Source of the DNA: Candidatus Saccharimonadota bacterium
Lineage (GTDB): Bacteria; Patescibacteriota; Gracilibacteria; UBA1369; 2-02-FULL-48-14
Reading direction: 5' to 3'
Length of the DNA: 32,000 nucleotides
Assembly: GCA_965230905.1 (NCBI GenBank)
Contig: OZ246396.1
Coordinates: forward strand, 990,001 to 1,022,000
The notes beneath the pieces are model-generated. The model searched no databases and was not told where the DNA came from. It was given only the letters and a program-made list of their open reading frames with translations. Made by a program: the position numbers and the translations under genes. This document shows, piece after piece, positions 2,516 to 30,569 of the stretch. Every line of letters begins with the position of its first letter. The first letter of the stretch is position 1.

Positions 2516-2619
2516 ACGAGGAGTTTTATTTTTCTTTTATCTAGTAATAGTATCATAAAAGCGGGTTTTCAGCAAGTGTGCATGCTTGGCAATTTTCCAG
2601 GTTCGGGCAATATAGAGAC

Positions 2620-3288
2620 ATGGCATTCCAAACGCCCATCCTCATCACCAATTTTAAGTGCTACCAAGAGTCCACCGGGGCGCGGGCCATTGAACTTGCG
2701 AAATTGCATGAGCGTGTGGCGAATGAACTGGGTGTGAATGTGGCCGTGGTGGGTATGTCACTCGATTTGGCGAATTTGGCCATGAGCGTGAGTATTCCTG
2801 TTTTGGCTCAACATTTGGACGGCGTTGGATGGGGCGCGTATACAGGTTTGGTTCCGGTGGAAGTGGCGCGTGGCGTGGGAATCGATGGATCGATGCTCAA
2901 CCATTCCGAACGACGTATTTCAGATTCGGAAATTGCGCGCGCACTGGAACGCATGAAGGCGCTGAACATGCTTTCGGTGGTTTGTGCCGAAAACAATGAA
3001 GAGGGAAAAAGATTTGCCGACATGGGCGCGGATTTTGTGGCCATTGAAGTGCCTGAGCTCATTGGTGGAAACGTGTCCGTTTCGGCGGCGCATCCCGAAC
3101 TCATTGTGGACGCCGTGCGCATCATTGGACCCGGGAAAGTGCTTGTGGGTGCGGGTATCAAAAGCGCCGAGGATGTGAAGAAAGCGCTGGAACTGGGCGC
3201 CGTTGGTGTGTTGGTTTCCAGCGGAATTGTGAAAGCGGCTGATCCGCTGGCCGCGCTTCGCGAGCTTTGCGGTGCTTTAAACCCCTAG
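2620..3288 (+). CDS. tpiA: Triosephosphate isomerase, archaeal-type (short ~222 aa form)
   Basis: MAFQTPILITNFKCYQESTG at the N-terminus. Also contains MLNHSERR, AIEVPELIGG and GAGIKSAEDVKKALELGAVGVLVSSGIVKA, which match the archaeal TIM pattern (INYK...NHSE(K/R)R...EPPELIG...GAGI). ATG 2620 is preferred over the track's GTG 2578 because homologs start right at the first beta-strand. Confidence 0.85.
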   Translation: MAFQTPILITNFKCYQESTGARAIELAKLHERVANELGVNVAVVGMSLDLANLAMSVSIPVLAQHLDGVGWGAYTGLVPVEVARGVGIDGSMLNHSERRISDSEIARALERMKALNMLSVVCAENNEEGKRFADMGADFVAIEVPELIGGNVSVSAAHPELIVDAVRIIGPGKVLVGAGIKSAEDVKKALELGAVGVLVSSGIVKAADPLAALRELCGALNP

Positions 3289-3291
3289 TCT

Positions 3292-4518
3292 ATGTCACGA
3301 CTTTCGGGAGGAATTTTCCCCCGTCTCATTGCCTTGTTTCCCTTGTTTTTTCCGCTGTATCTTTTTCGCGGAACTTTTGTGGGGGTGCCGGTGACGCTGC
3401 CGGAACTCTTGCTGGGCATTTTGGTTTTGCTGTTTTTGTTTCAAGGGTATGAATGGCGGCTGCGGGAATGGAAACTTTGGCCGGTTGGCTTGTTTTTAGT
3501 GGCTGCGGTGCTGGGACTTTGGGTGGTGTCACCTTCGATGACGTCGCCCGACTCGGTGCAGATGGTGGATGGAACGGAATTTCCGGCCATGACCAAGGCC
3601 TTGGGGATTTTTAAAGGTTGGATTGTGGCGCCGCTGCTTTATTTTGTGATGGCGCGCATGGTTTTCCGCAATAAACCTTCTATGGTTTCGTGGGCGCTCC
3701 GGGCTCTATTGGCTTCCGGCATGGTGCTTTCTTTAGTGGCCTTGCAACAGATTGTAACGGGGGATTTTTTGACGCCAGATATGCGCGCCTCCGGACCCTT
3801 TGAATCGGCGAATTATTTGGCGCTGTATTTGGGGCCGCTGGTGGTGTTTTCTGGGATGTCTTTTTTGCAGGCGGACTCCAAGCGGGATCGAATCTTTTTG
3901 CTCATTGGTTTTGCTTTGTGCGCGGCGGCCTTATTCTTAACCAAGTCTTACGCGGCGTGGATCGCCGTGATCGCGGGTTTTTCTTTGGCTTTGCTTCTGT
4001 GGATGCGGCGCCGGGGCGGCAAGTGGTTCTGGGGAACTTTTGTGACGCTGTTTGTCTTTGGAGCGGGCCTCGTCGCGTCCCAACTGGGCACCGCTAAATT
4101 CACGCAATTTTTGGAATTTTCGGAGCGATCTTCGTCCAGTGTGCGCATTCAAATTTATGAAATAAGTGCGCATCTTTTAGGCGAGCATCCACTCTTGGGG
4201 ATTGGGCTTGGGCAGTTTGAACAACAGTACCAGGCGGTGGCGGTTGAAACCCTGGGTGCGGCCCCTTTTGAATGGAACATGCTTCACCCGCACAATATTT
4301 TCTTGGCGTTTTGGCTGAACATGGGGCTGCTGGGACTCGGTTCTTTTGTGTGGCTCTGTGGGAAAGCTTTTTTGTGGCTGACGGAGGAGGATAAAAAGGA
4401 ACGCCACCTGGCGGCGCTGATGTTGGTGGTCATGGTGGTGCATGGATTTTTTGACACGCCTTACTTCAAAAACGACCTGGCTTTTCAGTTCTGGCTGCTC
4501 ATGGCCATGCTGCTTTAA
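3292..4518 (+). CDS. Polytopic membrane protein of the O-antigen ligase / Wzy_C (WaaL/PglL-like) family
   Basis: At least 10 hydrophobic segments. A large loop is followed by LGIGLGQFEQQY...LHPHNIFLAFWLNMGLLGLGSFVWL, the typical Wzy_C signature region (H-N-x-y-L...G-l-l-G). Starts 3 nt after the tpiA stop. Confidence 0.6.
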   Translation: MSRLSGGIFPRLIALFPLFFPLYLFRGTFVGVPVTLPELLLGILVLLFLFQGYEWRLREWKLWPVGLFLVAAVLGLWVVSPSMTSPDSVQMVDGTEFPAMTKALGIFKGWIVAPLLYFVMARMVFRNKPSMVSWALRALLASGMVLSLVALQQIVTGDFLTPDMRASGPFESANYLALYLGPLVVFSGMSFLQADSKRDRIFLLIGFALCAAALFLTKSYAAWIAVIAGFSLALLLWMRRRGGKWFWGTFVTLFVFGAGLVASQLGTAKFTQFLEFSERSSSSVRIQIYEISAHLLGEHPLLGIGLGQFEQQYQAVAVETLGAAPFEWNMLHPHNIFLAFWLNMGLLGLGSFVWLCGKAFLWLTEEDKKERHLAALMLVVMVVHGFFDTPYFKNDLAFQFWLLMAMLL

Positions 4519-14761: not shown

Positions 14762-16135
14762 TCAAAGATTAAACACTAAACCGGCATTTAAAACAATGCC
14801 GAGCGGGATGACGAGCAGATTGCCCCATGCCTTGTAGCGCAGGTATTCCACACGGAAACTGAGCAGCACGTGCCACAAGAAAACGCTGAGCAGCAAATGG
14901 CGGAGCGTTTCGGAGCTGAGCAGGTTGAAATCGCCGGGGAGTGGGTTGCCGCCGGGGAAGACTTTGGCGCTCACATAATGGCTGAAAAAGTACGCCACCA
15001 GGTAAAAGGCCAGTAGCCAGGCCAGGAAGTGATTCACTTCTTCGGTGATGAGCGGTTCGGCTTCGGCGTCGGCTTTGGTGAGTTGTTTTCGTGCCAAAAC
15101 CATTTCTTTCAGCTCTTGCTTGAGTCGGTCGCGTTCGTCTAGGAGCGATTGGAGGCTTTGGCGAGCTTCTTCTTTGGTGCTGGCGCTGGCTTGCCACACG
15201 ATTTTTCGGTAGGTCCAGATTTGCCGACTCACGGTCGAGATTTTTTCGTGCATGGCCTTTTCTTCCGGCGTGGGCAGCAAAGTGGAAAGCCAAGCGGCGA
15301 TGCCTTGGAACAATTGGTTGTTGGATTCTTTGAGGCGGCTTTGCATGTCCTCCAGATTTTGGGTCAGGCCCACTTCAGCCGGTTTTTCGTGCAGCGTGGC
15401 CATGAGCTTTTGGGCTTCCAGGCGCAGGTGGTCGCGCTGGCCTTGCATCTGTTCTTTATGGAGGAAGAGCTCTTGGTCCTGCACTTTTTTCAAAAGTTCT
15501 TCGGAGGTGGTTTCAATATAATCCAAGTTGGTGCTGCTTTTGATGCGGAGCAGTTTATCGATGGTGCCTTGAATCAGCTTTTGCGAATCGGGTTTCAGCT
15601 CGCCTTGGTAGGTCACGAGCATGCCTTTTATTTTTTCTAGAATAAAATCCACTTTTTGGAGCAGGGCTTTGCGTTTCTCTTCAAATTCCGCGGTGATTTT
15701 TTTCTCTTCAATCACGCCTTTGTCGGTGACTTTATTTTGCGCATCGTATTCGGCTTTGAGCACCGTGAGGTCTTCCGCTTTCGCTTTGGCTCGTTCTTCT
15801 TCGCTGGCGCCGCTGGCCACCACGTAAGAAACTTCAAATTGGTACTCGTCCATCAGACGTTTGAAGGCTTTGTAGCGGTTGCTGGCGGGAATGGTCCCAA
15901 TCACTTTTTTTCCGGTTTTATCAAAGGCTTCAAATTCAAATTTGGGGAGGTCGGCGGTGGTGCCGGCTTCTTTGGTAACCGTTTGGGGCGGAGTCTCGGC
16001 GGTTTTTAAAATCGACAAAAGCGAAATGCCGAAGGTGTTGAGTTGCTTTCGGGCGTCTTCTTCATTTGCGGCGCCGATGAGTCCACTCAGCTTCTTCCCG
16101 GTACTATTGACCGCTGTGTATTGAAACTGCGCCAT
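14762..16135 (-). CDS. Hypothetical membrane protein: two N-terminal GspF/PilC-N-terminus-like motifs, a long coiled-coil and three C-terminal TM helices
   Basis: aa 1-43 MAQFQYTAVNSTGKKLSGLIGAANEEDARKQLNTFGISLLSI and aa 65-105 KFEFEAFDKTGKKVIGTIPASNRYKAFKRLMDEYQFEVSYV both follow the F-x-Y-x-A-x-x-x-x-G-K...A...L...G pattern found at the N-terminus of T2SS-F/PilC proteins. The remainder does not look like a T2SSF domain. The start overlaps the pyrG 3' end by 32 nt. Confidence 0.5.
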   Translation of the reverse strand: MAQFQYTAVNSTGKKLSGLIGAANEEDARKQLNTFGISLLSILKTAETPPQTVTKEAGTTADLPKFEFEAFDKTGKKVIGTIPASNRYKAFKRLMDEYQFEVSYVVASGASEEERAKAKAEDLTVLKAEYDAQNKVTDKGVIEEKKITAEFEEKRKALLQKVDFILEKIKGMLVTYQGELKPDSQKLIQGTIDKLLRIKSSTNLDYIETTSEELLKKVQDQELFLHKEQMQGQRDHLRLEAQKLMATLHEKPAEVGLTQNLEDMQSRLKESNNQLFQGIAAWLSTLLPTPEEKAMHEKISTVSRQIWTYRKIVWQASASTKEEARQSLQSLLDERDRLKQELKEMVLARKQLTKADAEAEPLITEEVNHFLAWLLAFYLVAYFFSHYVSAKVFPGGNPLPGDFNLLSSETLRHLLLSVFLWHVLLSFRVEYLRYKAWGNLLVIPLGIVLNAGLVFNL

Positions 16136-17768
16136 GGCGTGGTGCGTGAGTAGTTACTTTGGAACTGGCGTCGATGAATCCGTAAAAAAGCGGATGTGGA
16201 CGGTGCGGGCGTGATAAGAATTCAGGATGGGATTGAGTTCCAATCATGAACGGATGATTTTTGAGTTCGCCCATTTCCACCAGGTTTCCTTCTTCAAAAT
16301 GTCCGGAGGGAATCCAGTCGCTGCCTTCCATGTCTTTTACAAAGTCGTTGTTGATTTCATAACGGTGGCGGTGACGTTCCATCACCATTTCTTTTCCGTA
16401 GAGTTGGCGGGCTAGGGTGCCTTCTTTGAGCATGCAGGGGTAGGATCCCAAGCGAAGCGTGGCGCCTTTTTCTTTGTTGCGGTGTTGGCCCGGTAAGAAG
16501 TGAATCACGTACTTGCGGGCATCGAGTTTGCCGTCTTCATCAAATTCTTCGGAAGTCAGCTCGGCGTCTGCCAGGAAGTGGCGTGCGTATTCAATGGTCA
16601 TGACTTGCAGCCCCAAACAAATTCCCAGGTAAGGCACCTTGCTTTCACGTGCGTATTTGGCCGCTAAAATTTTCCCTTCCGTTCCACGAATGCCGAATCC
16701 GCCGGGAACCAAAATTCCATGCGCGGCGCGAAGTTGCTCCCACGTGGCTTCATCGTTTTCCTCCAGTTTTTCGGCGTCGATCCATTGCAGATCCAGCTCC
16801 AAATCTTGGTGGTAGCAGGCGATTTTCAAAGACTCAATCACTGAAAGGTAAGCATCGTCGAGGTCCGTGTATTTTCCCACCAAAGCGATTCCAATGGGTT
16901 CACGTTTGGCTTGAATTTTGCTCACCAGCGTCTGCCAATCTTCCAGCATAGGGCTCACGTTGCCGAGGTGTAGTTTGTTGGCGATGAGCTCCGTGATTTT
17001 GTACTCATTGAAATTCAGCGGCACTTCGTAAATGGATTTGGCGGTCACGGCGGGAATCACGGCTTCTTCTTCCACATCACAGAATAGGGAGATTTTTTTG
17101 AGGATGTCGCTAGGAATGTTTTTGTCGGCACGCGCCAGGATGAAATCGGGTTGAATACCAATGGAACGCAGTTCGCGCACGGAAGCTTGCGTAGGTTTGG
17201 TCTTGAGTTCTTTGGAAGCTTTTAAGTAGGGAAGCAGGGTTAGGTGAACAAATAATGTGTTCTCTTTGCCCAGTTCGTGACGCATCTGACGGATGGCTTC
17301 CAGGTAGGGAAGGCCTTCAATGTCTCCAACGGTTCCTCCAATTTCAATCAGCACTACTTTAGCGCCACTTTGCTTAGCGGCTTCTTTAATTCGGTTTTTG
17401 ATTGCGGTGGTTACGTGGGGAACAACCTGAATGGTTCCACCCAAAAAGTCTCCACGGCGTTCTTTTGCAAGTACTTCGGTATAGATTTTTCCAGTCGTGA
17501 CGGAAGAGTGCTCGTTGAGGTTTTCATCAATAAAACGTTCGTAGTGACCAAGGTCCAAATCAGTTTCTGCGCCGTCGTCCGTAACAAAAACCTCTCCGTG
17601 TTGGAAGGGGCTCATGGTTCCGGGGTCTACGTTCAAATACGGATCCAGCTTCATTGTGAAGACCTTAAATCCGGCTGCTTTCAGGAGTGCGCCGATGGAA
17701 GCAGTGGCAATTCCTTTGCCCAAACTCGAACAAACTCCACCCGTGACAAATATATACTTGGTCGGCAT
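16104..17768 (-). CDS. pyrG: CTP synthase
   Basis: MPTKYIFVTGGVCSSLGKGIATASIGALLKAAGFKV. The glutamine amidotransferase region has YLGICLGLQ and HRHRYE. Confidence 0.97.
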   Translation of the reverse strand: MPTKYIFVTGGVCSSLGKGIATASIGALLKAAGFKVFTMKLDPYLNVDPGTMSPFQHGEVFVTDDGAETDLDLGHYERFIDENLNEHSSVTTGKIYTEVLAKERRGDFLGGTIQVVPHVTTAIKNRIKEAAKQSGAKVVLIEIGGTVGDIEGLPYLEAIRQMRHELGKENTLFVHLTLLPYLKASKELKTKPTQASVRELRSIGIQPDFILARADKNIPSDILKKISLFCDVEEEAVIPAVTAKSIYEVPLNFNEYKITELIANKLHLGNVSPMLEDWQTLVSKIQAKREPIGIALVGKYTDLDDAYLSVIESLKIACYHQDLELDLQWIDAEKLEENDEATWEQLRAAHGILVPGGFGIRGTEGKILAAKYARESKVPYLGICLGLQVMTIEYARHFLADAELTSEEFDEDGKLDARKYVIHFLPGQHRNKEKGATLRLGSYPCMLKEGTLARQLYGKEMVMERHRHRYEINNDFVKDMEGSDWIPSGHFEEGNLVEMGELKNHPFMIGTQSHPEFLSRPHRPHPLFYGFIDASSKVTTHAPRHGAVSIHSGQ

Positions 17769-17774
17769 GGGTAA

Positions 17775-17803
17775 AGTATACGCATGGTGTGCTTTTGGGG
17801 CAA
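17775..17803 (-). promoter_or_regulatory. Candidate sigma-70-type promoter for pyrG, positioned for a leaderless transcript
   Basis: The minus strand reads TTGCCC-17 nt-TATACT. Exactly 6 nt (TTACCC) follow before the pyrG ATG at 17768. There is no SD. Confidence 0.35.
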
Positions 17804-17874
17804 GCGAAAGCTTTTCATCATTTCCTTCGAGTACGGGAACTTAAACCGTTGACGAGTTCACCGTAAATTCTAGG

Positions 17875-17907
17875 AAAGAAAAAGAGAGTGCATGCACTCT
17901 CTTTTTC
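17875..17907 (-). terminator. Rho-independent terminator after the 799-aa SLH protein gene (palindromic, usable on both strands)
   Basis: The perfect palindrome agagagtg-catg-cactctct (17883-17902) is flanked by an A-run (17879-17882) and a T-run (17902-17906). It lies 37 nt downstream of the stop at 17939. Confidence 0.8.
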
Positions 17908-17938
17908 TGCTCCCAGGTGAACGAGTTAAGGGTTTAAG

Positions 17939-20338
17939 TTACTCATCCCATCCTTCACTCGCAACTCCCCAAGCAATAGCAACGCGAGTGGCGATGGCCA
18001 TGGCTTCAGAGCGGGCGATGTTCTTGTAAGGACCAAAGGTTCCGTTGCTGTAACCTTCTACGATCGGTTGATCGGTATCGTCGGCGGTATCCACCAGGGT
18101 AGAGTTGGCGATAGCAAGGGCGTAGGCAAAGTAGTCGTCGTTTTCTACGTCGCTGAAGCTTGCTTCAACGTCGTAAGAGAAGGTACCTTCACCGGCGGCA
18201 CGGATTGCCCACAAGATGGCATCGGCACGAGTGACAGGAGTATTTGGGTTGAAGCTGTAACCAGAATCACGGGTACGAATCCAATCTTCATTTTCAGCAA
18301 GATTGATGTAGGGGTAATGCCAGTCGTTTGGAGAAACGTCCGTGAATCCAACGTTGCCGCTGTATCCATCCTGTTCATCGAGTCCAAAGATTTTGGTGAG
18401 TACTTTTACGTATTCGGCACGAGTGATGTTTCCATCCGGTCCAAATATTAAAGTGCTGTAACCCTTCACCCAACCGGCTTCTTGAGCGCGGCAGATAATA
18501 TCTTCGTGCCATTCACCGTCGTTGTCCGTGAAGGAATCGGTACAGGTGTAGTTTGCAAGGATGATATCTCGGGTGAGGGTAGGGACTTCATCGCTAGGTT
18601 CAATTGGATCCACTGGATCTTCAACGACGACACCAGGATAGTCGTTAGCGTCGAGAGGATCGGTTCCGGCAGCTACTTCTGCTCCATCGGAGTGGGTGTC
18701 GTTGTCGGTATCGGAATCGTTAGTATCCGTGTCGTAGGTATCCACCTCTTCAATGTCGGTGAGGCCATCTCCGTCCGTATCGAGTGCAAGTGCAGCAGCA
18801 GCTTCGGCAGCGGCCAGGGCAGCGGCTTCAGCGGCAGAAAGGGTGGCTTCGTTTACTGTAGGATCGGTTCCAGCTGTGACTTCATCTCCATCGGATACGC
18901 CGTCTTCATCGGTATCGACGAGAGCGGGGTCAGTTCCGTGTTTTTTGATTTCTGCTTTATCGCTGAGGCCGTCTCCGTCAGTATCCGTAACTTCTTCAAC
19001 TACTGCAGCTGCTTGAGTGATTGTAAGTTTAGCGGTGCACTTCTTGGACCCATCTATACTTACGTTTATAGGGTCACCTGCAACTCCTCCGCTGAAGCTT
19101 ACAGTTATATTTTTGTCGCTAGTCAAGTCTATGTTTAAAGGGTTTGCTGTGACAGGTTTGGATGAAGAACTTGTGTATGTGAACACTCCAGCTCCGGGTG
19201 TTTTGAACACCAAGGTTCCTTGCCAATCTTGGGGGGTGCTACTACCATCTGGCTTTTTAGCACCATCGGTCTTTATAGCGAGTAAAGAAGCTTTAATGCC
19301 ATCCATAATGAATGCACTGAGGCTTTCTTCTTCAGCCAATTCTAAGCTTACGGTGATGTCGAAGGCAGCTTCCGTATCGGTGGCAGCCATCTCATGACTG
19401 GATGGGATTAGCGTTAGGCTTGTACAAGCAAGGGAGCTGTCGGCTGTCGTTTCAATTACATAGCTGGCTGCAATATCTGCATGCAGTTTTGCGCTATTAA
19501 GATCTTCTTTTGCAGCTATTTCGAATGCCTGTTCACTCGCTAGTTCAGCCGCCATTTCGTCGTCAATCGCCTTAAGCTCGGTTAGATAGTCAGCGGTGTA
19601 GCTTGCCTCGTAGTCAGCTTTTGCATCCTGCCAAGCGTTGTAAAGGCTTTTTGCTTCAGTGAAAATATCTTCAAAGTCGTAGCCTGTATTGTACATAGCG
19701 GGATACATACCACATTTGCTCTGGTAGTTGGTTCCGTAGTACTCCTCACAAATATACCATTTAAGGCTTGTGTAATCTGTTTCTAGGCTGAGACACTCTA
19801 CCACGTCTGATCCCGTTTTGATATCCTCTTCACATGCCTTCCACGCTTCTTTTGCTTCAAAGGCTCCAATCCAATCACTGTCCTTTGCTTTGCTGATTCT
19901 GCTATTGTAGGCAGCCTCAGCTGAGTCAACGACGGTTTCGGCTGCTAATTTTTGCTCTACTCCGGCATCGTACGCTCGTTCAGCTACTCCAGCCGCGATT
20001 TCAGCGTTTTCTATGTAAGTAGCAATTTCGTCGTAGGCGGTTTGAGCATTGTCTGCTGCGGTTTGTGCTTTGCTTGCCGCGATTTTTAAACCATTCGCAT
20101 CACCTTTCTCAGCAGCGGCCTTTGCCGCTTCTTGCTGTGTTTTTGCCTCAGTCGCATAATCTTCTACTTTTGCTGCAGAGCCCTCTGCATCCTTGCTATA
20201 GGTGGTGCTCCCAGTTTCGGGATTACCCACCCTGCCCTGCAAATAGCCGCTTTGGGCCATCGAGTAGGCGACTCCGCCCAAAAGGACGATGAGGAGCAGT
20301 AAAAGGATAAGAGGTTTTTTGGTAGGTTTAGTTTGCAT
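17939..20338 (-). CDS. Secreted/anchored surface protein: Ala/Glu-rich helical region + Cys-bounded module + TSP3-like DxDxDG repeats + C-terminal SLH repeats
   Basis: N-terminal signal/anchor KKPLILLLLLIVLLGGVAYSMAQS. DTDGDGLSDKAEI..GTDP..DTDEDGVSDGDE and DTDGDGLTDIEE...DTDNDTHSDGAEVAAGTDPLDANDYPG. SLH-like repeats include FTDVSPNDWHYPYINLA...NTPVTRADAILW and FSDVENDDYFAYALAIA...GYSNGTFGPYKNIARSEAMAIATRV. The start overlaps the upstream gene by 11 nt. Confidence 0.8.
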   Translation of the reverse strand: MQTKPTKKPLILLLLLIVLLGGVAYSMAQSGYLQGRVGNPETGSTTYSKDAEGSAAKVEDYATEAKTQQEAAKAAAEKGDANGLKIAASKAQTAADNAQTAYDEIATYIENAEIAAGVAERAYDAGVEQKLAAETVVDSAEAAYNSRISKAKDSDWIGAFEAKEAWKACEEDIKTGSDVVECLSLETDYTSLKWYICEEYYGTNYQSKCGMYPAMYNTGYDFEDIFTEAKSLYNAWQDAKADYEASYTADYLTELKAIDDEMAAELASEQAFEIAAKEDLNSAKLHADIAASYVIETTADSSLACTSLTLIPSSHEMAATDTEAAFDITVSLELAEEESLSAFIMDGIKASLLAIKTDGAKKPDGSSTPQDWQGTLVFKTPGAGVFTYTSSSSKPVTANPLNIDLTSDKNITVSFSGGVAGDPINVSIDGSKKCTAKLTITQAAAVVEEVTDTDGDGLSDKAEIKKHGTDPALVDTDEDGVSDGDEVTAGTDPTVNEATLSAAEAAALAAAEAAAALALDTDGDGLTDIEEVDTYDTDTNDSDTDNDTHSDGAEVAAGTDPLDANDYPGVVVEDPVDPIEPSDEVPTLTRDIILANYTCTDSFTDNDGEWHEDIICRAQEAGWVKGYSTLIFGPDGNITRAEYVKVLTKIFGLDEQDGYSGNVGFTDVSPNDWHYPYINLAENEDWIRTRDSGYSFNPNTPVTRADAILWAIRAAGEGTFSYDVEASFSDVENDDYFAYALAIANSTLVDTADDTDQPIVEGYSNGTFGPYKNIARSEAMAIATRVAIAWGVASEGWDE

Positions 20339-23237
20339 ACCAAGCGAGGTAAAATCGTAAAGCTAACGTCATTGCCTCTGAACGGGCAATGTATTTAGTG
20401 GCACCAGCGGTGCCATCAGAATATCCAGCAAAGACTCGTGTCGTCCCTGTATCAGGGTCGTCTACAATCGTGTTGTAACCAATGATGATCGCGTAAGTGT
20501 AGTAATCGCTCTTGCTAATATCTGAGAAGGCAATATCACTTTCATCCCAGCCGTAGAGCGTTTGTTCTGCGATACGAACCATGTAAACCATGAGGTCTCC
20601 ACGGGTGATAGGTGCGTTTGGATTCGCAACCGTTCCACGTACAATGCCCAGTTCTTCAGCGGCAACGTAGTAATCGTAGAACCAATCGTTGGAAGTTACG
20701 TCACTGTAGCTTTCGCCGTTTCCAATGCCTTCATTTCCAGAAAGGAGGATCAAAACTTTTATAGCTTGAGAACGGGTGAAGTATTCTTCACCGCCAATGG
20801 TGTCGGAATCGAGTCCTGTAAATATGCCCGCACGGTAGAGACGGCAGGTCTTGCCCCAGAACCAGTCGGATTCATCTACGTCATCAAAAGGTTCTGAACA
20901 AACGTAGTCTTTTGAAGCTAGGATGGTGTTCAATTCGTTGTTGGTGGTAAGCACTTCGGTCTCGTCCTCATCTTCTTCAATATCCTCTTCAATATCTTCT
21001 TCATAGTAAGCATCTTCATCTTCATCTTCATCTTCATCGCTTAGGCCAGGGTAGTCGCTGGCATCGAGAGGATCGGTTGCGGCCGTGATTTCGGCTCCGT
21101 CGGAGTAGGTGTCACCATCGGTGTCGGCGAGAGTAGGGTCGGTGCTGTAAGTAATTTCTTCTTCATCGGTGAGTCCATCGAAGTCGGTGTCGGTACCGCT
21201 TAGACCTGGGTAATCATTGCTTAGGCCAGGGTAGTCGCTGGCATCGAGAGGATCGGTTCCTGCTGTGAGTTCTTCTTCGTCGGAGTAGGTGTCACCATCG
21301 CTGTCTTCGTCGGCTGTTTTGTATTCCAACGTCATCGTGTCTGTACAGGTTTCTTCACCTTCAATGTAAGCGGTGATGATGTCTCCTGCTTTTGCATTTT
21401 TGTAGATGAGCTTAAGATTTGTGCTTGCACCGTGAACCATGGCGTAAGCGGATTCGTCGTTTGTGCTATTTTCATATATTACGGTGCCTGGCATTTCTTG
21501 GAAGAGGAAAACGCCATTAGTAGGGTCTCCGTTAGATTTCTTTGCTTCTACTATAAGTTTCTCTTCCCATATGCCGTCCTCAGCGGCTAAATTCACCTGA
21601 CTGTAGGAAAGTATGTTTTTAATGAAGCTGGCTAGCTCGTCACTTGGAGTGCTTTCCACGTTTATTTCTAGATCCACTGCCTTTTCACCATCCGCAAGAA
21701 CGTAGGTGTCGGGGAGTATGTCCACTGAGATACATACTGGGGCAGCGTCTTCTGCAGTCTCATCGGTTTCGGTTGATTCATCGGTCTCATCGGTTGGAGT
21801 TGGCAATGCGTCCTTTTCTAGGGTAAGTGAATCCTCACAGCCTTCATCTTTAATGTAGGCAGTGATGATGTCGCCAGCGTTTCCGTCAATGTAGAGAAAC
21901 GCATCAGTGGTAAGCGTATCACCGGAAATTTCAATTTCAGTTATAACTTTCCTCTGGCCGGCTTTACTATTATAAGTGAAGGTTCCCATGGTTTTATCTT
22001 GTCTATCAACTTCTACTACCAAGGTTCCTTTCCAAGTTGTTCCGGTGTCGGTTTCTGATTTTATTTCACCAACGAAAGGAGCGGGGATTGCTTGATTTAG
22101 ATAAGCATCTGAATCGGAGGTATTGTCGTCAAGCAACGGATCGGAGTTTAAGGTTCCGGCATCCACATTTGAGGATGCGTCCTGGTCGTCTTCTTCAAGA
22201 CTATCCAGATACTCAAGCTGGGATGTGTTTACCTCTGTCTCTGGGGCACTATTCATTTGAATGCTAGATTCACCGATGGTGAAAGCCAGCAAGTTGGCTG
22301 CTTGGAATCTAGGGTCAAATAGGCCAGCGCTGGTTTCTTCTGTAAGTTCTACTCGTACAGAAAACTCAAGGTCATTATCGGCGTCAAAGTCGGTCATGGA
22401 CGTTGTCATGATGTTGACCTCACAGGTAGGTCCGGACGTAGTTGTAGTGCTAGTGTCGGTTTCAGGTTCAACGGCCTCTTCGGGTTCTGTGGTTTCTGAG
22501 CTTGTGTCTCCTTCGACAGTAATTATTGACTGATCACTACAATTTTTCTCCTCTTTAATGTAAGCAAGAATTACGTCGCCCACAGCGCCATCTTTATAAG
22601 TGAAAGTAAACGATGGTGTCTCTTTGGTGATTGGAATTTCCAATCGTTGCCCGCCTAGCGGGTCAACATTACTTGTTAGGTCACCTTGCCCCGTTGTTTC
22701 AACGACTAAAATGCCTGTCCATCCGGTATTGGTTCCTAGCTCTTCTGTGACCGTTTCCTCAGGCTCTTCTTCTACAGACGTGCCTAGCGTGCGGGGGTTA
22801 AGACCATTCCCGGGTTTTACTTTTATATCTGGGGCATCTTCATCAGTAGGCTCTTTTGGATCAATTGGGTCTTTAGGATCGATTGGATCGATTGGCACTA
22901 TTGGCCCGGTAGGTAGAGTAGGCTCGTCTAAGTTACTGGGAACGGTTGGGTCTTCGTCCATCCGATCGTTAACCCCAAAAGCGTTGGCAGTTTGGTTTTC
23001 TGCGTTAAATAAACTAGCAGATGTTTTTTCGCCGAGTGTTACGTCAACTTGGAAGGTAATGTCTTCGCCAGTAGTTGCTAATACAAGAGCGTCAGGGCTG
23101 ATCTTTACTTCGGTACATACCAAATCGGATTTTCCTACGTTCCTAAGATTCCCGCTCAGGAAACTACTTTGAGTGAGGGCATAGGCTGCGCCACCAATTA
23201 TGGTTACGGCGAGGAGTAGGTAGGCGATTTTTCTCAT
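20328..23237 (-). CDS. Giant secreted surface protein: three Cys-bounded modules + TSP3-like repeats + poly-acidic spacer + C-terminal SLH repeats
   Basis: N-terminal signal/anchor MRKIAYLLLAVTIIGGAAYALTQS. Modules at aa 41-243, 272-476 and 502-640. DSDGDTYSDEEELTAGTDPLDASDYPGLS and DTDGDTYSDGAEITAATDPLDASDYPGLS. DEDEDEDEDAYYEEDIEEDIEEDEDE. SLH-like repeats include YSDVTSNDWFYDYYVAAEELGIV...NAPITRGDLMVYM and FSDISKSDYYTYAIIIG...GYSDGTAGATKYIARSEAMTLALR. Confidence 0.8.
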   Translation of the reverse strand: MRKIAYLLLAVTIIGGAAYALTQSSFLSGNLRNVGKSDLVCTEVKISPDALVLATTGEDITFQVDVTLGEKTSASLFNAENQTANAFGVNDRMDEDPTVPSNLDEPTLPTGPIVPIDPIDPKDPIDPKEPTDEDAPDIKVKPGNGLNPRTLGTSVEEEPEETVTEELGTNTGWTGILVVETTGQGDLTSNVDPLGGQRLEIPITKETPSFTFTYKDGAVGDVILAYIKEEKNCSDQSIITVEGDTSSETTEPEEAVEPETDTSTTTTSGPTCEVNIMTTSMTDFDADNDLEFSVRVELTEETSAGLFDPRFQAANLLAFTIGESSIQMNSAPETEVNTSQLEYLDSLEEDDQDASSNVDAGTLNSDPLLDDNTSDSDAYLNQAIPAPFVGEIKSETDTGTTWKGTLVVEVDRQDKTMGTFTYNSKAGQRKVITEIEISGDTLTTDAFLYIDGNAGDIITAYIKDEGCEDSLTLEKDALPTPTDETDESTETDETAEDAAPVCISVDILPDTYVLADGEKAVDLEINVESTPSDELASFIKNILSYSQVNLAAEDGIWEEKLIVEAKKSNGDPTNGVFLFQEMPGTVIYENSTNDESAYAMVHGASTNLKLIYKNAKAGDIITAYIEGEETCTDTMTLEYKTADEDSDGDTYSDEEELTAGTDPLDASDYPGLSNDYPGLSGTDTDFDGLTDEEEITYSTDPTLADTDGDTYSDGAEITAATDPLDASDYPGLSDEDEDEDEDAYYEEDIEEDIEEDEDETEVLTTNNELNTILASKDYVCSEPFDDVDESDWFWGKTCRLYRAGIFTGLDSDTIGGEEYFTRSQAIKVLILLSGNEGIGNGESYSDVTSNDWFYDYYVAAEELGIVRGTVANPNAPITRGDLMVYMVRIAEQTLYGWDESDIAFSDISKSDYYTYAIIIGYNTIVDDPDTGTTRVFAGYSDGTAGATKYIARSEAMTLALRFYLAWYAN
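21039..21300 (-). repeat. Intragenic direct DNA repeat (two ~82-bp copies exactly 180 bp apart) encoding the DGDTYSD...TDPLDASDYPGLS unit
   Basis: In 21039-21120 versus 21219-21300, the first 40 nt (gcttaggccagggtagtcgctggcatcgagaggatcggtt) and the last 23 nt (cgtcggagtaggtgtcaccatcg) are identical and the centre has diverged. A related copy lies in the neighbouring gene near 18640-18720. Confidence 0.85.
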
Positions 23238-23260
23238 TTTTGTTTTTAGTAAATCTTAGT

Positions 23261-23289
23261 ATTTTACACCAAAATCACTCGTTTAACAA
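23261..23289 (-). promoter_or_regulatory. Candidate sigma-70-type promoter for the 969-aa/799-aa surface protein genes
   Basis: The minus strand reads TTGTTA-17 nt-TAAAAT, with the -10 ending 23 nt upstream of the ATG at 23237. It lies in the 72-nt gap after the 222-aa SLH gene. Confidence 0.35.
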
Positions 23290-23309
23290 GGGGCTGGAGA
23301 GTCATGAAC

Positions 23310-23978
23310 TCAATACAGCTCTTCCCAAACCCTCTCGGCAATAACGATGGCTTCTGCGCGGGTCAGGTTATTGTTTGGGCGGAAAGTTCCATTGCCGTAG
23401 CCTTCAACAATTCCTTGGTCAACGGCAGCCGCCACTGCATCCCCAAACCAGTCGTCAGCACTCACGTCCGAGAAGCGGCTTTCAAAACCAAAGACATCGT
23501 ATTCAATGATGCCGGACATTTGAGTGATCATGGTGACTGCTTCTGCGCGAGTAATATAGTCGTTGGGGTGAAAACTGCCATCGGTATAGCCGCTCACAAA
23601 GCCCTTAGATCTCGCGAAAGTTATATAGGAATAAGCCCAGTCTTCTGCAGTCACGTCTGTGAAGCTGGCGCTTTGAACCGGGTAAACGGTGTAGCTCAAA
23701 TTGAGCAGGGAGATTTTTAAAAACTCAGCACGAGTGATGGGATTGTTTGGCAAGAAGTTTTTTTCGGAATAGCCAGAAACAATTCCCTCCTCGTACATAA
23801 AACAAATGTCCTCTTCGGCCCAATGGTCGGCCACGTCAATAAAAGGATGAGTGCAACCCGTGTTGGTGGTTTCAGCTTTTGCTGTACTGAATGAAAGCGG
23901 AAGTATAAGAAGCGTCGCTATCGCGACGGCCTTTTGTAGGCTCACCTTTGGTGAGTGGGCAGCGAGGAATTTCTTCAT
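23310..23978 (-). CDS. Secreted protein consisting of a signal peptide plus three SLH repeats
   Basis: Signal AVAIATLLILPLSFSTAKAE. Repeats: FIDVADHWAEEDICFMYEEGIVSGYSEKNFLPNNPITRAEFLKI; FTDVTAEDWAYSYITFARSKGFVSGYTDGSFHPNDYITRAEAVTMI; FSDVSADDWFGDAVAAAVDQGIVEGYGNGTFRPNNNLTRAEAIVIAERV. Confidence 0.88.
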   Translation of the reverse strand: MKKFLAAHSPKVSLQKAVAIATLLILPLSFSTAKAETTNTGCTHPFIDVADHWAEEDICFMYEEGIVSGYSEKNFLPNNPITRAEFLKISLLNLSYTVYPVQSASFTDVTAEDWAYSYITFARSKGFVSGYTDGSFHPNDYITRAEAVTMITQMSGIIEYDVFGFESRFSDVSADDWFGDAVAAAVDQGIVEGYGNGTFRPNNNLTRAEAIVIAERVWEELY

Positions 23979-23987
23979 GTGAAAAGT

Positions 23988-24953
23988 TTAGTTCAATCCA
24001 CTATTTTGGTAAACCTGATCCATGGTTTTTTGAGCGAGGAGGCGGGCTTTTTTGGCGCCCATTTCCATGATTTCATCGAGATTTTCAGAGCTTTCAAGCT
24101 GGTCGCGGCGGCTACGGGCTTCGGCAAAGAATTCGAGGAGTTTGGCGAGCAGAGCTTGCTTGGCACGGCCGTATCCAAAACCTCCTGCAAGGTAATTGCT
24201 CTTCAACTCCTCCAGTTCTCTCGAATTAGAAAATTGTTCATAGAGGGAGAGGATGATGTCGTCTTCAATCGGCATGGCGTCTTTGAGCTCAATACTGGCG
24301 GTTTTAATTCCCATGATCTGTTTCTTAATCACGTCCTCCGATTCAAAGAGGCTGATGGTGTTGCCGTAACTTTTGCTCATTTTTTGTCCGTCGGTTCCAG
24401 TCACCGTGCCCACATCTTTTTCAATGGTGGGTTCAGGCAATTTAAAAGTCTCTCCATAAAAATGGTTGAATTTTTCGGCAATGTCGCGGGCAATTTCCAC
24501 GTGCTGTTTTTGGTCCTGGCCCACGGGAACTTGATCGGCTTGGTATATCAAAATATCCGCGGCCATGAGCACTGGATAGGTGAAAAGTCCTACGTTCATG
24601 TCGCGACTCCCTTTGGCGACGGCGTCTTTCCAGGCGTGGGCTCGTTCGAGTAAACCTTGTGGAGCAACGGTGGAAAGAATCCACGCGAGTTCAGCGTGCT
24701 GGGGCACGTCACTTTGGTAGAAGAAGGTTACTTTTTCGGGGTCTAGACCCAAGGAAAGGTAGCTGAGTGCTACTTCACGGCGGTATTCTCTCATCTCGTC
24801 GGCGTTTCTAACGGTGGTGAGGGCGTGGTAGTCCGCTACAAAATATAAACACTCGTTATCTTGATTTTGCAGGGCGATGTGTTGGCGAATAGCGCCCAGA
24901 TAGTTTCCAAGGTGTGGCCGGCCCGTGGGTTTGATTCCAGATAAAATGCGCAT
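23988..24953 (-). CDS. trpS: Tryptophan--tRNA ligase
   Basis: MRILSGIKPTGRPHLGNYLGAI (HIGH-type motif) and GQKMSKSYGN (KMSKS). 321 aa. Confidence 0.95.
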   Translation of the reverse strand: MRILSGIKPTGRPHLGNYLGAIRQHIALQNQDNECLYFVADYHALTTVRNADEMREYRREVALSYLSLGLDPEKVTFFYQSDVPQHAELAWILSTVAPQGLLERAHAWKDAVAKGSRDMNVGLFTYPVLMAADILIYQADQVPVGQDQKQHVEIARDIAEKFNHFYGETFKLPEPTIEKDVGTVTGTDGQKMSKSYGNTISLFESEDVIKKQIMGIKTASIELKDAMPIEDDIILSLYEQFSNSRELEELKSNYLAGGFGYGRAKQALLAKLLEFFAEARSRRDQLESSENLDEIMEMGAKKARLLAQKTMDQVYQNSGLN

Positions 24954-25407: not shown

Positions 25408-25510
25408 TTGGTGTACCGCAGGCGGATTTTGGCCGAAAGGTGAATATATACTCACCTAGCGTTTTGTCACTAGAATGTGGCTACTTTAACCTGTTGAAGC
25501 GGTGGATTTT

Positions 25511-25519
25511 TGCTAAAAT
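25511..25519 (+). promoter_or_regulatory. Possible extended -10 promoter (TGcTAAAAT) for the HNH gene
   Basis: tgctaaaat lies 24 nt upstream of the ATG at 25543. TTGAAG sits 14 nt upstream, which is suboptimal spacing. Confidence 0.25.
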
Positions 25520-25542
25520 TAAATTTCCTTAATCTAACAATT

Positions 25543-26346
25543 ATGACAGACGAAGAACTCTATGAAAAAGCCCGCCTTTATGGGCAAAACGTATTGCAAT
25601 GGAGGCAAAGGTTTATGGGCTTACTCCCGGAAGTGGAGAAACGCCGTCTTTATGCAAAGAAGGGTTTCGGCTCCGTGTTTGAATTTGCTTTTAAGTTGGC
25701 AGGGTTGAGTGAAGAACAGGTGCGAAGGGTTTTAAGCCTTGAAAAGAAATTTACAGAGCTACCTGTTTTGAAGGGGCTTTTAGAGACGGGCGAAGTGAGT
25801 GTAAATAAGTTGGCACGCGTGGCCTCCATAGCTACTTCACAGAATGAATTGGAATTGGCGGAGGTAGTAAAAGTTTTGCCACAGAAGGCGCTAGAGACTT
25901 TGGTTAGAGACGAAAATGCTGTACCACTTGTACCACGAGGGCACTTTGTGCGCGCGCACAACTTGGGATTGAGCGATGAGGTGACTGCAAAACTTCTTGA
26001 GCTTCAAGAAAAAGGACTAGATGTAAATGAGCTATTTTTGGAGTTTTTACAGAAGCATGAAGAGGAAATTGCCCAAGAAAAAGCAGCTATTGCCGCAGAA
26101 CTGCCAGGATCACAATCCCGTCATGTACCAGCTCGCACGCAGCGGGTTCTACAAAAAGAAAACGGTTCCAAATGTTCCATCCAAACCTGCAAAAGACCCG
26201 CCCAGCATCTGCACCACACGCAAACCTTTGCGCTAAGCAGACGGCACGACCCACATTACTTGGCCCCCCTTTGCAAAGAACACCACACTATCGCGCACGC
26301 CATCAATGTGAAGGTGCAGGAGAGGCGGACGGATTTTATACGCTGA
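25543..26346 (+). CDS. HNH endonuclease with DUF222/13E12-like helical N-terminal region
   Basis: The C-terminus CSIQTCKRPAQHLHHTQTFALSRRHDPHYLAPLCKEHHTIAH has the C-x4-C...HH...C-x2-HH HNH zinc-finger layout. The N-terminus LPEVEKRRLYAKKGFGSVFEFAFKLAGLSEEQVRRVLSLEKK is typical of DUF222-HNH proteins. ATG 25543 is preferred over the track start at 25510. Confidence 0.8.
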   Translation: MTDEELYEKARLYGQNVLQWRQRFMGLLPEVEKRRLYAKKGFGSVFEFAFKLAGLSEEQVRRVLSLEKKFTELPVLKGLLETGEVSVNKLARVASIATSQNELELAEVVKVLPQKALETLVRDENAVPLVPRGHFVRAHNLGLSDEVTAKLLELQEKGLDVNELFLEFLQKHEEEIAQEKAAIAAELPGSQSRHVPARTQRVLQKENGSKCSIQTCKRPAQHLHHTQTFALSRRHDPHYLAPLCKEHHTIAHAINVKVQERRTDFIR

Positions 26347-28334: not shown

Positions 28335-30569
28335 ATGTTTTTGATGATCTCACGCCGCCACTTACTCGCATCCGCTGTTTTAAATCTGGTTTGGATTTTG
28401 CCTGTCTCTGCGGCGGATCTCTTCACTTCAGGTATTGAAAACGGACTTATACAAGGAAATGCTGTTCAAACGCAGCACTTCCAGTTTGAGTTTTCTGATG
28501 TGGTGGGTGAACAGGCCGATTCCGATGGAGATGGAATCCCTAATCTTATAGAAGTGACGGCCGAAGCAGCTGAAGAAAGCTGGGACATTGTGATTGACGA
28601 TCTGGGTTACGAAGAGCCCACGGGAGATGGAAGCCGTTTGATCGTTATTATGGACGACAACGATGAGTACTTGAGCAGCAGTGCTTTGGGAATCACCAGT
28701 TTGCTCAGCAATGGAAATCCTTATGTAGCCATTGACCCTTGGATGTCGGATGCGTATTTGCAAGTGACCATGGGCCATGAATTTTTTCATGCGGTTCAAT
28801 TTGGCTACGACCCGGGCTTTGCCTATTCCTACCAGGGAATTAATTTTGCGGAAGCCACCGCCACTTGGGTGGAAGACCTCATTTTTGATTCCGTGGACGA
28901 CTACGCTCTTTATATACCTGAATTTTTAAGTTACATCGATTACTCGATTTTTGCCTCCATTGTCCCTACGGGGACTTTGTATGAATATGGAATGAACATT
29001 TGGCCTCGTTTCTTGAGTGAGTACTACGACAACAACGTGATTAAGAATGTGTGGGAAACGTATTTTGATTCGTCCATTGATTTTGATAGCGATCTGAAAC
29101 TTTATGAAGCGGTGAAGGATGTGGTGGGTGAGGAGGGTGGAGATTTGGAAGCGGTTTTCCAACAGTTCACGCTTTGGAATTTGAATTTGGATAGCTATGA
29201 AGAGGGAGATATTTATCCGGAGGTATTTATTTTAGAGGGTGAAGAAAGTCAGGACTATGTGCTGAGTGATGAAAGTTATGCGCCAGCTCTGTTTGGAAGC
29301 AACTATCTTTACTTTGAAAACTCCAGTGGATCGGGTGAATTTTCCTTCCATTTGGTTAAGCCCGAGGGCGTGAGCTTTGCCGTTTCTTTGGTGCCATACG
29401 ATGGGGTGAATTACGATACCGATGCGGCTGAAACGGTCATTATTGGCAAAGACGACGAAATGTCGGAGGCGCTTAGCTTAAGCCATGTTGGAGCACAGGA
29501 TGGGGTGATGGCGGTTATTTCTGCTTTGAATATAGACTACGATGATGGGAACAATTGGGAGGTGTTTGACGAGGGGTATTTGTATTATTATTTGGCAGAT
29601 TACGGCTTGAATGAAAGTGAGTTTGAAGAACTCATGAGTGGAACGGAAGAAGAACTCACCGAGGAAATTGAAGAGACTGATGGAGAAAAAGAAGGTGAAA
29701 CAACGGAGTACGCTTCGGATGGACGGGGTCAAAGTAGTTTGACCTTATCGGTTGTAAGTTTTGATCAAAATTCGGCCACGTTCTCTTGGAATCGTTTGGA
29801 TGACAATGATATTGCGGGTTACGAGCTCCATTACGGTACTTCTTCCGGTTCTCATGCAAATAAGCTGGAAATTAAAACGGCTTACACCACTTTCAGCACC
29901 GTGGCTGATTTGGAAGCTGGTGAGACCTATTATTTCACTTTGAGGGCCGTAGATAAAAATGATGACAAGGTGGGTGAAGAAAGTTCTGAAGTTTCCCTCA
30001 CTCCCGAAGAATGGCTGTTTGAGGATATATCTTTTGCCAATCCACATTACGCCGCGATTGAGAACTTAGTGGAAATGGGAATATTTGAAGGTTATGCCGA
30101 TAATACTTTCCGACCAGAAACTGAAATCAACCGAGCTGAACTCTTGAAGATTTTGGTGGAAGGTCGGGACATTGAGGTGGATGCTTCCTTGAATAAGAAC
30201 TGTTTCCCTGATGTTGGGGAAGAATGGTATTCCCAGTACGTTTGCTACGCCAAATACCGAGGATGGATCAAGGGCTACAGTGACGGTACTTTTAGGCCCA
30301 GCGACACGGTGAATAAAGTGGAGGCGCTCAAGATGCTCTTCAATGTCTATGAAATGGAGCTGAGTGAAGACGCTACGGTTGCGAATCTTAAGTACACCGA
30401 TCTCGATGAAAATGCTTGGTACGCCATCTACGTATGGAAAGCCTCTAGCTTGGGAATTTTGGAAGAAACCGTGGGTGGAACCTTTAACGGTGCTGACGGT
30501 AGAAACCGGGGTGATATGGCCGAAGAACTCTACCGCTACTTAGTGGTGGAGGAAGGGCTTAAGGAATAA
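28335..30569 (+). CDS. Secreted putative zinc metalloprotease (HEXXH) with FN3-like domain and three C-terminal SLH repeats
   Basis: Signal LLASAVLNLVWILPVSAAD. VTMGHEFFHAVQFGY has HEFFH at 28776-28790. The FN3-like region is LTLSVVSFDQNSATFSWNRLDDNDIAGYELHYGTS...GETYYFTLRAVDKNDDKVGEES. SLH repeats include FEDISFANPHYAAIENLVEMGIFEGYADNTFRPETEINRAELLKIL and FPDVGEEWYSQYVCYAKYRGWIKGYSDGTFRPSDTVNKVEALKML. Confidence 0.75.
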   Translation: MFLMISRRHLLASAVLNLVWILPVSAADLFTSGIENGLIQGNAVQTQHFQFEFSDVVGEQADSDGDGIPNLIEVTAEAAEESWDIVIDDLGYEEPTGDGSRLIVIMDDNDEYLSSSALGITSLLSNGNPYVAIDPWMSDAYLQVTMGHEFFHAVQFGYDPGFAYSYQGINFAEATATWVEDLIFDSVDDYALYIPEFLSYIDYSIFASIVPTGTLYEYGMNIWPRFLSEYYDNNVIKNVWETYFDSSIDFDSDLKLYEAVKDVVGEEGGDLEAVFQQFTLWNLNLDSYEEGDIYPEVFILEGEESQDYVLSDESYAPALFGSNYLYFENSSGSGEFSFHLVKPEGVSFAVSLVPYDGVNYDTDAAETVIIGKDDEMSEALSLSHVGAQDGVMAVISALNIDYDDGNNWEVFDEGYLYYYLADYGLNESEFEELMSGTEEELTEEIEETDGEKEGETTEYASDGRGQSSLTLSVVSFDQNSATFSWNRLDDNDIAGYELHYGTSSGSHANKLEIKTAYTTFSTVADLEAGETYYFTLRAVDKNDDKVGEESSEVSLTPEEWLFEDISFANPHYAAIENLVEMGIFEGYADNTFRPETEINRAELLKILVEGRDIEVDASLNKNCFPDVGEEWYSQYVCYAKYRGWIKGYSDGTFRPSDTVNKVEALKMLFNVYEMELSEDATVANLKYTDLDENAWYAIYVWKASSLGILEETVGGTFNGADGRNRGDMAEELYRYLVVEEGLKE

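Follow-up and report, generated by a model that had tools for sequence, protein, structure and literature searches.

A new family of Cys-bounded, predicted Ig-like modules in putative wall-anchored surface proteins of Candidatus Peribacteria

S-layer proteins that are anchored by SLH domains and built of immunoglobulin-like (Ig-like) beta-sandwich domains include SbsB of Geobacillus stearothermophilus, and Sap and EA1 of Bacillus anthracis. Bacteria of the candidate phyla radiation (CPR), or Patescibacteria, are believed to live in attachment to other cells, and most of their surface proteins lack annotation. We investigated a module with a conserved Cys near either end, which is repeated in two adjacent genes, encoding proteins of 969 and 799 aa, in a 32,000-nucleotide stretch of a CPR genome (GenBank assembly GCA_965230905.1, contig OZ246396.1, positions 990,001 to 1,022,000; hereafter the window).

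The window proteins resemble SbsB, Sap and EA1 in combining an SLH triplet with a string of small beta-sandwiches, in the involvement of calcium (here through TSP3 repeats, which bind calcium) and in their variability between strains. They differ in the position of the SLH triplet, which is N-terminal in SbsB and Sap and C-terminal in the window proteins, and in the modules themselves, which bear an invariant Cys pair and a long variable loop. No sequence similarity to the three proteins was detectable, and none of them was among the top 50 Foldseek matches. Within the same lineage, a study of Candidatus Peribacter riflensis describes large, Cys-rich, exported and strain-variable proteins, with a proposed role in attachment (Anantharaman et al. 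2016, PMC4736985). One distant relative of the window proteins (P0013; 1758 aa, 39 Cys and no Pfam domain) is of that type, whereas the window proteins themselves have eight Cys each, all paired, and are not Cys-rich overall; the module is not defined in the accessible text of that study.

The module forms a new, well-delimited sequence family of a familiar domain kind, and represents neither a new system nor a new mechanism. Our preferred interpretation, to which we assign a probability of about 0.6, is that it is a new extracytoplasmic family of probably disulfide-stapled, Ig-like modules, carried by wall-anchored and fast-evolving surface proteins.

The window contains four copies of the module, three in the 969-aa protein (M1 to M3) and one in the 799-aa protein (M4), and no fifth copy was found within its 32 kb. 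The initial annotation had delimited these four segments from the sequence, and translation recovered its coordinates exactly, together with every motif string that it quoted; each module opens with a Cys and has a second conserved Cys near its end, as do all 78 modules of the wider family. The segments proved to be homologous, as had been proposed. Pairwise Smith-Waterman scores were 60-149, against shuffle means of 29-37 (z = 5.0-19.2 over all six pairs), and for every pair none of 300 shuffles reached the observed score. An independent profile, built from 32 modules of other genomes only and containing no window sequence, matched M4, M1, M3 and M2 at 114.6, 84.8, 74.4 and 66.7 bits, equivalent to E-values of 5e-28 to 3e-13 at a database size of 1.8 billion, while the best of 1000 shuffled modules scored 10.3 bits.

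Other details of the initial description required revision. The conserved core comprises ~95-110 aa, rather than the ~140 aa first given for the module. Inserts described as ~80 aa in length are indeed present in two copies, M1 and M2, but measure 72 and 69 aa; their acidic and Pro-rich character holds for M1 (21% Pro, 26% Asp+Glu), whereas the M2 insert is acidic and rich in Ser, Thr and Asn, with 6% Pro. A proposed S(A/L)(S/G)(L/F)F landmark falls in a poorly conserved, variable segment, and M3 and M4 do not strictly fit it. Core identity among the four window copies is 20-36%, and the closest relatives of each copy in other genomes share 35-52% core identity with it. As each module is closer to its relatives in other genomes than to the other window copies, the window paralogues are old.

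We identified relatives of the module by an exhaustive hidden Markov model (HMM) search of 1.84 billion cluster representatives, which returned 53 proteins at E ≤ 1e-3, 17 at E ≤ 1e-10 and five at E ≤ 1e-30. Word-indexed homologue searches with the four-module and 35-module alignments gave no match, missing even the window's own proteins; since the exhaustive search found 53, these negatives reflect the sensitivity limit of the index and not absence. A scan of GTDB genomes with the four-module alignment matched 88 stretches by pattern, of which none was confirmed. The family has so far been found almost only in Candidatus Peribacteria/Gracilibacteria, and no description of the module was found in literature searches.

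Family members contain one to five modules each, as judged by a local re-search. A Pfam scan of 51 members identified SLH domains in 33 and TSP3_bac repeats in 20, with any other family in at most three. From the N-terminus, members usually have a conserved hydrophobic leader and a variable region, then the modules and TSP3 repeats, and lastly three SLH domains. The window proteins conform to this. SLH scores 43.6 bits over two stretches in the 969-aa protein (E = 2.9e-11) and 62.3 bits over three in the 799-aa protein (E = 4.1e-17; Pfam threshold 20.8 bits), and TSP3_bac scores 39.7 bits over three stretches (E = 4.2e-10) and 67.0 bits over four (E = 1.3e-18; threshold 25 bits), respectively, the Pfam matches on the 969-aa protein being confined to its C-terminal third. 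Motifs of the DxDxDG type occur at aa 645, 683 and 705 of the 969-aa protein, and at aa 452, 475, 520 and 543 of the 799-aa protein. A subgroup of proteins of 1300-1900 aa carries several compact modules and no Pfam domain (P0013 and P0045 were scanned singly). P0013, with its 39 Cys, is from a metagenome-assembled genome (MAG) named 'Candidatus Gracilibacteria'. Its locus (L075, 3487-13277 of a contig of JGI 3300028028) holds two adjacent giant genes, of 1498 and 1758 aa and without Pfam domains, the second of which has 39 Cys and at least three compact modules. The giant genes adjoin a TIM-Wzy_C gene pair, and the same pair occurs at 2578-4518 of the window.

In an alignment of 35 full-length modules, C1, L72, G117 and C130 are invariant and P8 and G70 nearly so, with W68 and D118 as further nearly invariant consensus columns. 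Across 78 modules, drawn from cluster representatives and genome loci and thus from different proteins and genomes, both Cys are at fixed positions in every case; 76 modules have exactly two Cys, and two have four. In the window modules the second Cys sits 9-11 residues short of the module end, and the six module Cys are the only Cys of the 969-aa protein before residue 780. Rather than stapling each module internally, the pair might bind a metal, or might engage in disulfides between modules or between molecules and so cross-link the coat as a lattice; we consider this reading very unlikely. In its favour, the second Cys of one module is separated from the first Cys of the next by only 35-39 residues (233/272 and 467/502 in the 969-aa protein), and several Foldseek matches are cupredoxins; on the other side, both Cys are kept in proteins with a single module, the Cys count per module is always even, and the near-invariant residues (C, P, W, G, L, G, D, C) include no conserved His or Met for type-1 copper. 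A cupredoxin identity, considered from the Foldseek matches, was likewise rejected for want of conserved His or Met as copper ligands. A further Cys pair, in the motif CxxPFxDxxxxxWxxxxxC, opens the first SLH domain (Cys780/Cys798 at 20847-20900 in the 969-aa protein, Cys599/Cys616 at 18491-18544 in the 799-aa protein), and this motif is found in the family consensus.

The fold was predicted with AlphaFold2 for M4, using the 35-sequence alignment (mean predicted local distance difference test score, pLDDT, 84.2; predicted template modelling score, pTM, 0.72). The model consists of strands (residues 3-7, 10-12, 20-29, 70-75, 81-84, 92-94, 97-101, 106-114, 119-124 and 131-137) and nothing else, in agreement with the beta-sandwich proposed by the initial annotation, and the last of these is the final strand that it had placed after the second Cys. 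The first Cys lies before strand A, and the second before the last strand. Confidence is 89-97 per 10-residue block outside residues 31-70, and 55-67 for residues 31-68. An earlier model of M3, made from four sequences only, had a pLDDT of 60.8, with eight strands and one helix (residues 33-42), and was left out of fold searching. Foldseek searches of the M4 model against the PDB and BFVD gave no match at E ≤ 0.001. All 50 PDB matches listed were beta-sandwich domains of Ig-like or cupredoxin-like type, the top ones, at probabilities of 0.9-1.0, being to PapD-like/ASH, Calx-beta, chaperone-usher Ig domains, complement MG domains and cupredoxins. The module shares its overall sandwich with the PapD-like/ASH, Calx-beta and chaperone-usher folds (6fvi, 3ead, 3dsn; probability 0.9-1.0), but at E = 6e-3 to 1e-1, TM-scores of 0.3-0.44 and 5-12% identity, and in unrelated contexts, so that the likeness is one of fold level only. 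The predicted fold class is thus an Ig-like/E-set beta-sandwich, without close structural relatives in the searched libraries.

Length variation in the family is concentrated between strands B and C, in a segment that is a hot spot for insertions and deletions. When aligned to the family profile with hmmalign, the inserts of M1 and M2 both fall after profile column 52, as do inserts of at least 5 aa in 27 of the 78 modules, and in about 25 of 78 most of columns 28-58 is deleted. Profile matches split into h1-30 and h53-131 were seen among family members, and the distance between the first and second Cys varies across the family from 92 to 240 aa. This insertion site coincides with the low-confidence stretch of the M4 model.

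We could not assign the module to any named family. Searches of Pfam with the whole window proteins, with single modules (E up to 10) and with 35 family members (E up to 1) gave nothing consistent on the module. The best Pfam scores on the window modules were 14.9 bits for OprF, 14.1 for Calci_bind_CcbP, 13.7 for fn3_6 (cut-off 26.4), 13.3 for CHB_HEX and 12.9 for CUB_CDCP1_1, and each family matched at most two of the 35 members. Big_1, Big_2, Big_3_5, Big_6, Big_13, CARDB, fn3 and fn3_6 produced no match at gathering score on the module, NCBIfam gave no match on the modules, and searches of PDB sequences with both profiles reached a best E of 0.049. These PDB matches, to Mediator Med14 (E = 0.049) and alphavirus E1 (E = 0.08), are not significant and were rejected. 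The initial annotation had named two outcomes that would count against it, a hit to a known family and a failure of the four segments to align; searches of Pfam, NCBIfam, PDB sequences and Foldseek libraries (PDB, BFVD) gave no confident match, and the segments align as described above. The module is unrecognised in the sense of being absent from the libraries searched, while at the level of fold it is an ordinary Ig-like sandwich.

The Big-type families (Big_1, Big_2, Big_6, CARDB and fn3_6) nevertheless deserve comparison, being likewise all-beta sandwiches of ~100 aa that occur in tandem copies in surface proteins and carry a G-x-A-G-D-x-I-x-A hairpin motif on the penultimate strands. The longer form of this motif, T-V-x-[YF]-x-G-G-x-A-G-D-x-I-x-A, resembles the strand hairpin of many Big domains. 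The module might be merely a very divergent member of such an existing family (Big_1, Big_2, CARDB or fn3_6) that the HMM searches missed. Faint, sub-threshold Pfam matches, of M1 to fn3_6 (E = 0.075) and of a single family member to Big_6 (E = 0.079), point that way, as does the recovery of P0018, a protein with six Big_1 repeats, at E = 2e-10 with the four-sequence profile. We regard this as unlikely. The P0018 score is the sum of weak matches, of 8-10 bits each, across six near-identical repeats, and was lost with the 34-sequence profile; we rejected the Big_1 link as an artefact. An hhalign comparison of the family profile with one P0018 Big_1 repeat gave a probability of 4.2% over 22 aligned columns, no Pfam family recurs or reaches its threshold among the 35 members, and the PDB profile search also remained without a significant match. 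The new family is set apart by its Cys pair and its B-C insertion site, both of which are particular to it. There is thus direct evidence against this alternative, as there is against inter-module cross-linking or metal binding by the Cys pair.

A conserved leader (consensus MKKxxYxLxAxxxxGGxA[FY]xL[ST]Q[ST]x[LF]L[KQ]G) is found at the N-terminus of both window proteins, and of many cluster representatives. A strict GG-x(2,3)-[FY]...[LFM]-x-G pattern occurs in 20 of 44 cluster representatives that start with Met, and looser variants in more. It is also found on large open reading frames (ORFs) of the same locus that have no module, with leader-bearing ORFs at L003, L004, L006, L009, L011, L013, L014, L020 and L047. 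Its role may be that of a sorting signal specific to the lineage, or of an anchor that stays uncleaved. If uncleaved, the proteins could serve as tethers that span from the membrane, at the N-terminus, to the wall, at the SLH domains, with the modules setting the spacing. In its degree of conservation the motif of the leader (GG-x-A-[FY]-x-L-[ST]-Q-[ST]-x-L-L-[KQ]-G) far exceeds a normal Sec signal, it is unlike the ordinary signal peptide that the adjacent 222-aa SLH protein carries, and M1 begins only ~10 residues past the leader, all of which would suit a tether. We nonetheless find this doubtful, as an A-x-A-like site (AYA|L) ends the hydrophobic stretch in many members, and the distant members P0013 and P0028-P0030 have ordinary signal peptides.

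We compared the locus with related syntenic loci, which were obtained through pyrG. The window pyrG (CTP synthase) shares 94% identity with its counterpart in an uncultured Candidatus Peribacteria MAG, and most of the ~50 closest pyrG loci are named Peribacteria, Peregrinibacteria or Gracilibacteria; judged by pyrG, this groundwater bacterium is an uncultured member of the Candidatus Peribacteria (CPR). Two contigs from Hainich groundwater (0.2 µm fraction), of which one is 138 kb long, code for a protein identical to the 969-aa one. Housekeeping neighbours in the window include dnaG, rpoD, greA, lgt, pyrG, trpS and priA, and the conserved gene order is priA, the EVE-domain gene, trpS, the 222-aa SLH gene (SLH222), a slot, pyrG, the gene of a T2SSF_N protein, and lgt. 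In 12 related genomes, each with a pyrG that is at least 77% identical, ORFs with modules occur immediately upstream of pyrG.

The interval between SLH222 and pyrG is a hypervariable slot in Peribacteria, in which domain order and module number are shuffled (loci L003-L022). The slot is empty of large surface-protein ORFs in L021; L007 and L047 have a single one there, L003, L008 and L009 have two each, and L014 has three. The genome closest to the window is L003, where the flanking genes retain 77-94% identity; the counterpart of the 799-aa protein is 51% in alignment and aligns only from residue 301 onward, and the homologue of the 969-aa protein has two modules, not three, with TSP3 repeats on the N-terminal side. 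The preceding part of the 799-aa protein (aa 37-304) is unalignable even to the genome with the 94%-identical pyrG. This region (19427-20230, minus strand) is rich in Ala and Glu, with a composition that looks helical and with Cys at 169, 182, 197 and 209, and has no Pfam match.

The variability of the slot bears on a tentative alternative, that the module is for adhesion or recognition: rather than being a passive spacer, its sandwich would hold out the hypervariable B-C segment, together with the N-terminal regions, as a surface for binding host cells or polymers. The bacterium would on this view be an episymbiont, and the slot beside pyrG an island for host range or attachment. The concentration of length variation in one loop is consistent with this, as are the extremely fast divergence of the slot genes relative to their neighbours and the differences in gene number and domain order between close genomes. 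Large extracellular proteins are, moreover, proposed for attachment and as the seat of strain variation in the Peribacter riflensis study (PMC4736985). Against it, the inserts are of low complexity, acidic and Pro- or Ser-rich, and not structured loops; the variable segment is modelled at low confidence; and Pfam scans match no ligand-binding family or carbohydrate-binding module.

The interpretation that we prefer, of disulfide-stapled Ig-like building blocks in wall-anchored proteins, may be set out as follows. Each copy would be a small, all-beta Ig-like sandwich, predicted to have ~95-110 core residues, in which the Cys at the first residue (before strand A) and the Cys before the last strand would form an intradomain disulfide, stapling both ends. 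The B-C segment would accept changes ranging from near-deletion to acidic, Pro- or Ser/Thr-rich and probably disordered inserts of more than 70 residues. The modules would be strung singly or in tandem (one to five) in secreted proteins, which the three C-terminal SLH domains would bind non-covalently to the cell wall, with the calcium-binding TSP3 repeats as a putative stalk between modules and SLH domains. In such an S-layer-like or S-layer-associated coat, the modules would be rigid spacer and display units, stabilised by oxidation, with the variable loop and N-terminal regions turned towards the environment or towards a host cell. What the analysis shows is the homology of the copies, the size and architecture of the family, the constancy of its Cys, the predicted fold, the insertion hot spot, the identity of the organism, and the synteny and hypervariability of the locus. 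What we infer from it is the disulfide, together with secretion, anchoring to the wall and the spacer or display role, export being suggested by the hydrophobic N-terminal leader together with the SLH domains. The Peribacteria genome study (PMC4736985) reports large, often Cys-rich and strain-variable extracellular proteins, S-layer protein genes and one disulfide-bond-formation protein from Peribacteria genomes. Taken together with this, the family, fold and locus data support the interpretation.

Several observations weigh against it. The case for the disulfide consists only of the invariance and location of the Cys. The Foldseek TM-scores are low (0.28-0.46, query-normalised), with none at E ≤ 0.001, and therefore support the fold class but not a specific topology family. 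Some distant members, such as P0013 (1758 aa) and P0045 (1879 aa), have neither SLH nor any other Pfam domain, indicating that the module is not tied to wall anchoring. The gene of the pyruvyl-transferase CsaB (csaB) is absent from the 32-kb window, and the SLH ligand is thus putative. Finally, the leader, being more conserved than an ordinary signal peptide, may stay uncleaved, which would change the topology of the proteins.

The features of the two genes and of the border of the slot are collected in Table 1. The start of the 799-aa gene overlaps the stop of the 969-aa gene by 11 nt. Promoter and terminator scans over 17600-24200 gave hits at shuffle level only, and were uninformative on operon structure.

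Table 1. Positions of the two surface-protein genes, their modules and associated features in the window.
Feature	Coordinates	Strand	Evidence
Gene of 969-aa surface protein: leader, three modules, TSP3 repeats, SLH	20328..23237	-	ORF
N-terminal leader of 969-aa protein (MRKIAYLLLAVTIIGGAAYALTQSSFLSGNL)	23145..23237	-	Leader pattern, family comparison
Module 1 (M1), 969-aa protein aa 41-243; Cys41 and Cys233	22509..23117	-	Alignment, profile 84.8 bits
M1 insert, 72 aa (aa 93-164), acidic and Pro-rich, between strands B and C	22746..22961	-	hmmalign
Module 2 (M2), 969-aa protein aa 272-476; Cys272 and Cys467	21810..22424	-	Alignment, profile 66.7 bits
M2 insert, 69 aa (aa 325-393), acidic, Ser/Thr/Asn-rich, same profile position as M1 insert	22059..22265	-	hmmalign
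Module 3 (M3), compact, 969-aa protein aa 502-640; Cys502 and Cys631	21318..21734	-	Profile 74.4 bits
TSP3 repeats and acidic linker, 969-aa protein aa 641-779	20901..21317	-	Pfam TSP3_bac, 3 stretches
C-terminal SLH region, 969-aa protein aa 780-969, preceded by Cys780/Cys798	20331..20900	-	Pfam SLH, best stretch 783-826
Gene of 799-aa surface protein: leader, Ala-rich N-terminal region, one module, TSP3 repeats, SLH	17939..20338	-	ORF
N-terminal leader of 799-aa protein (…LLLLLIVLLGGVAYSMAQSGYLQG)	20231..20338	-	Leader pattern, family comparison
Module 4 (M4), compact, 799-aa protein aa 305-442; Cys305 and Cys434	19013..19426	-	Profile 114.6 bits; AlphaFold pLDDT 84.2
TSP3 repeats and linker, 799-aa protein aa 443-598	18545..19012	-	Pfam TSP3_bac, 4 stretches
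C-terminal SLH region, 799-aa protein aa 599-799	17942..18544	-	Pfam SLH, 3 stretches
222-aa protein with three SLH domains, upstream; conserved left border of the variable slot	23310..23978	-	Pfam SLH 6.1e-49

Three further genes of the neighbourhood were noted. GspF is the platform protein of the type II secretion system and type IV pilus. A 457-aa protein (14762-16135, minus strand) is encoded by a gene that has a 32-nt overlap with pyrG and is found in the same place at every related locus. Of GspF it has the N-terminal domain only (T2SSF_N); after this come a long charged stretch and, towards the C-terminus, hydrophobic segments. A 744-aa protein (28335-30569, plus strand) combines an MXAN_6640-type HExxH metalloprotease domain, just under the NCBIfam cut-off, with fn3 and SLH domains, and from these domains appears to be a wall-anchored protease near the surface-protein neighbourhood. 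Between the EVE-domain gene and priA lies a 278-aa ORF (25510-26346, plus strand) without a Pfam match at 1e-3, the C-terminus of which carries a Cys/His-rich motif (CSIQTC…HLHH…CKEHH…H) with an HNH-nuclease-like look.

The gain from this family is the definition of a recurrent domain, for which there are now ~80 example modules and a profile ready for use, along with a confident model of the fold and a genomic slot of fixed position. It gives annotators a name for otherwise unannotated protein sequence and deserves a Pfam-style family entry, and M4, at 138 aa, is a compact and probably stable domain for expression. As a conjecture that we hold with considerable reserve, the module might be a lineage-specific display scaffold of episymbiotic CPR bacteria: a disulfide-locked Ig-like frame, the B-C loop and N-terminal appendages of which would be rapidly swapped and resized in the slot between trpS-SLH222 and pyrG, changing the specificity for host or surface, with the leader marking a dedicated sorting route for coat proteins. 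Mechanistically unsurprising as it is, the family provides a lead for attachment proteins in the CPR, and the trpS-pyrG hypervariable slot could mark strain-level surface variation in Peribacteria.

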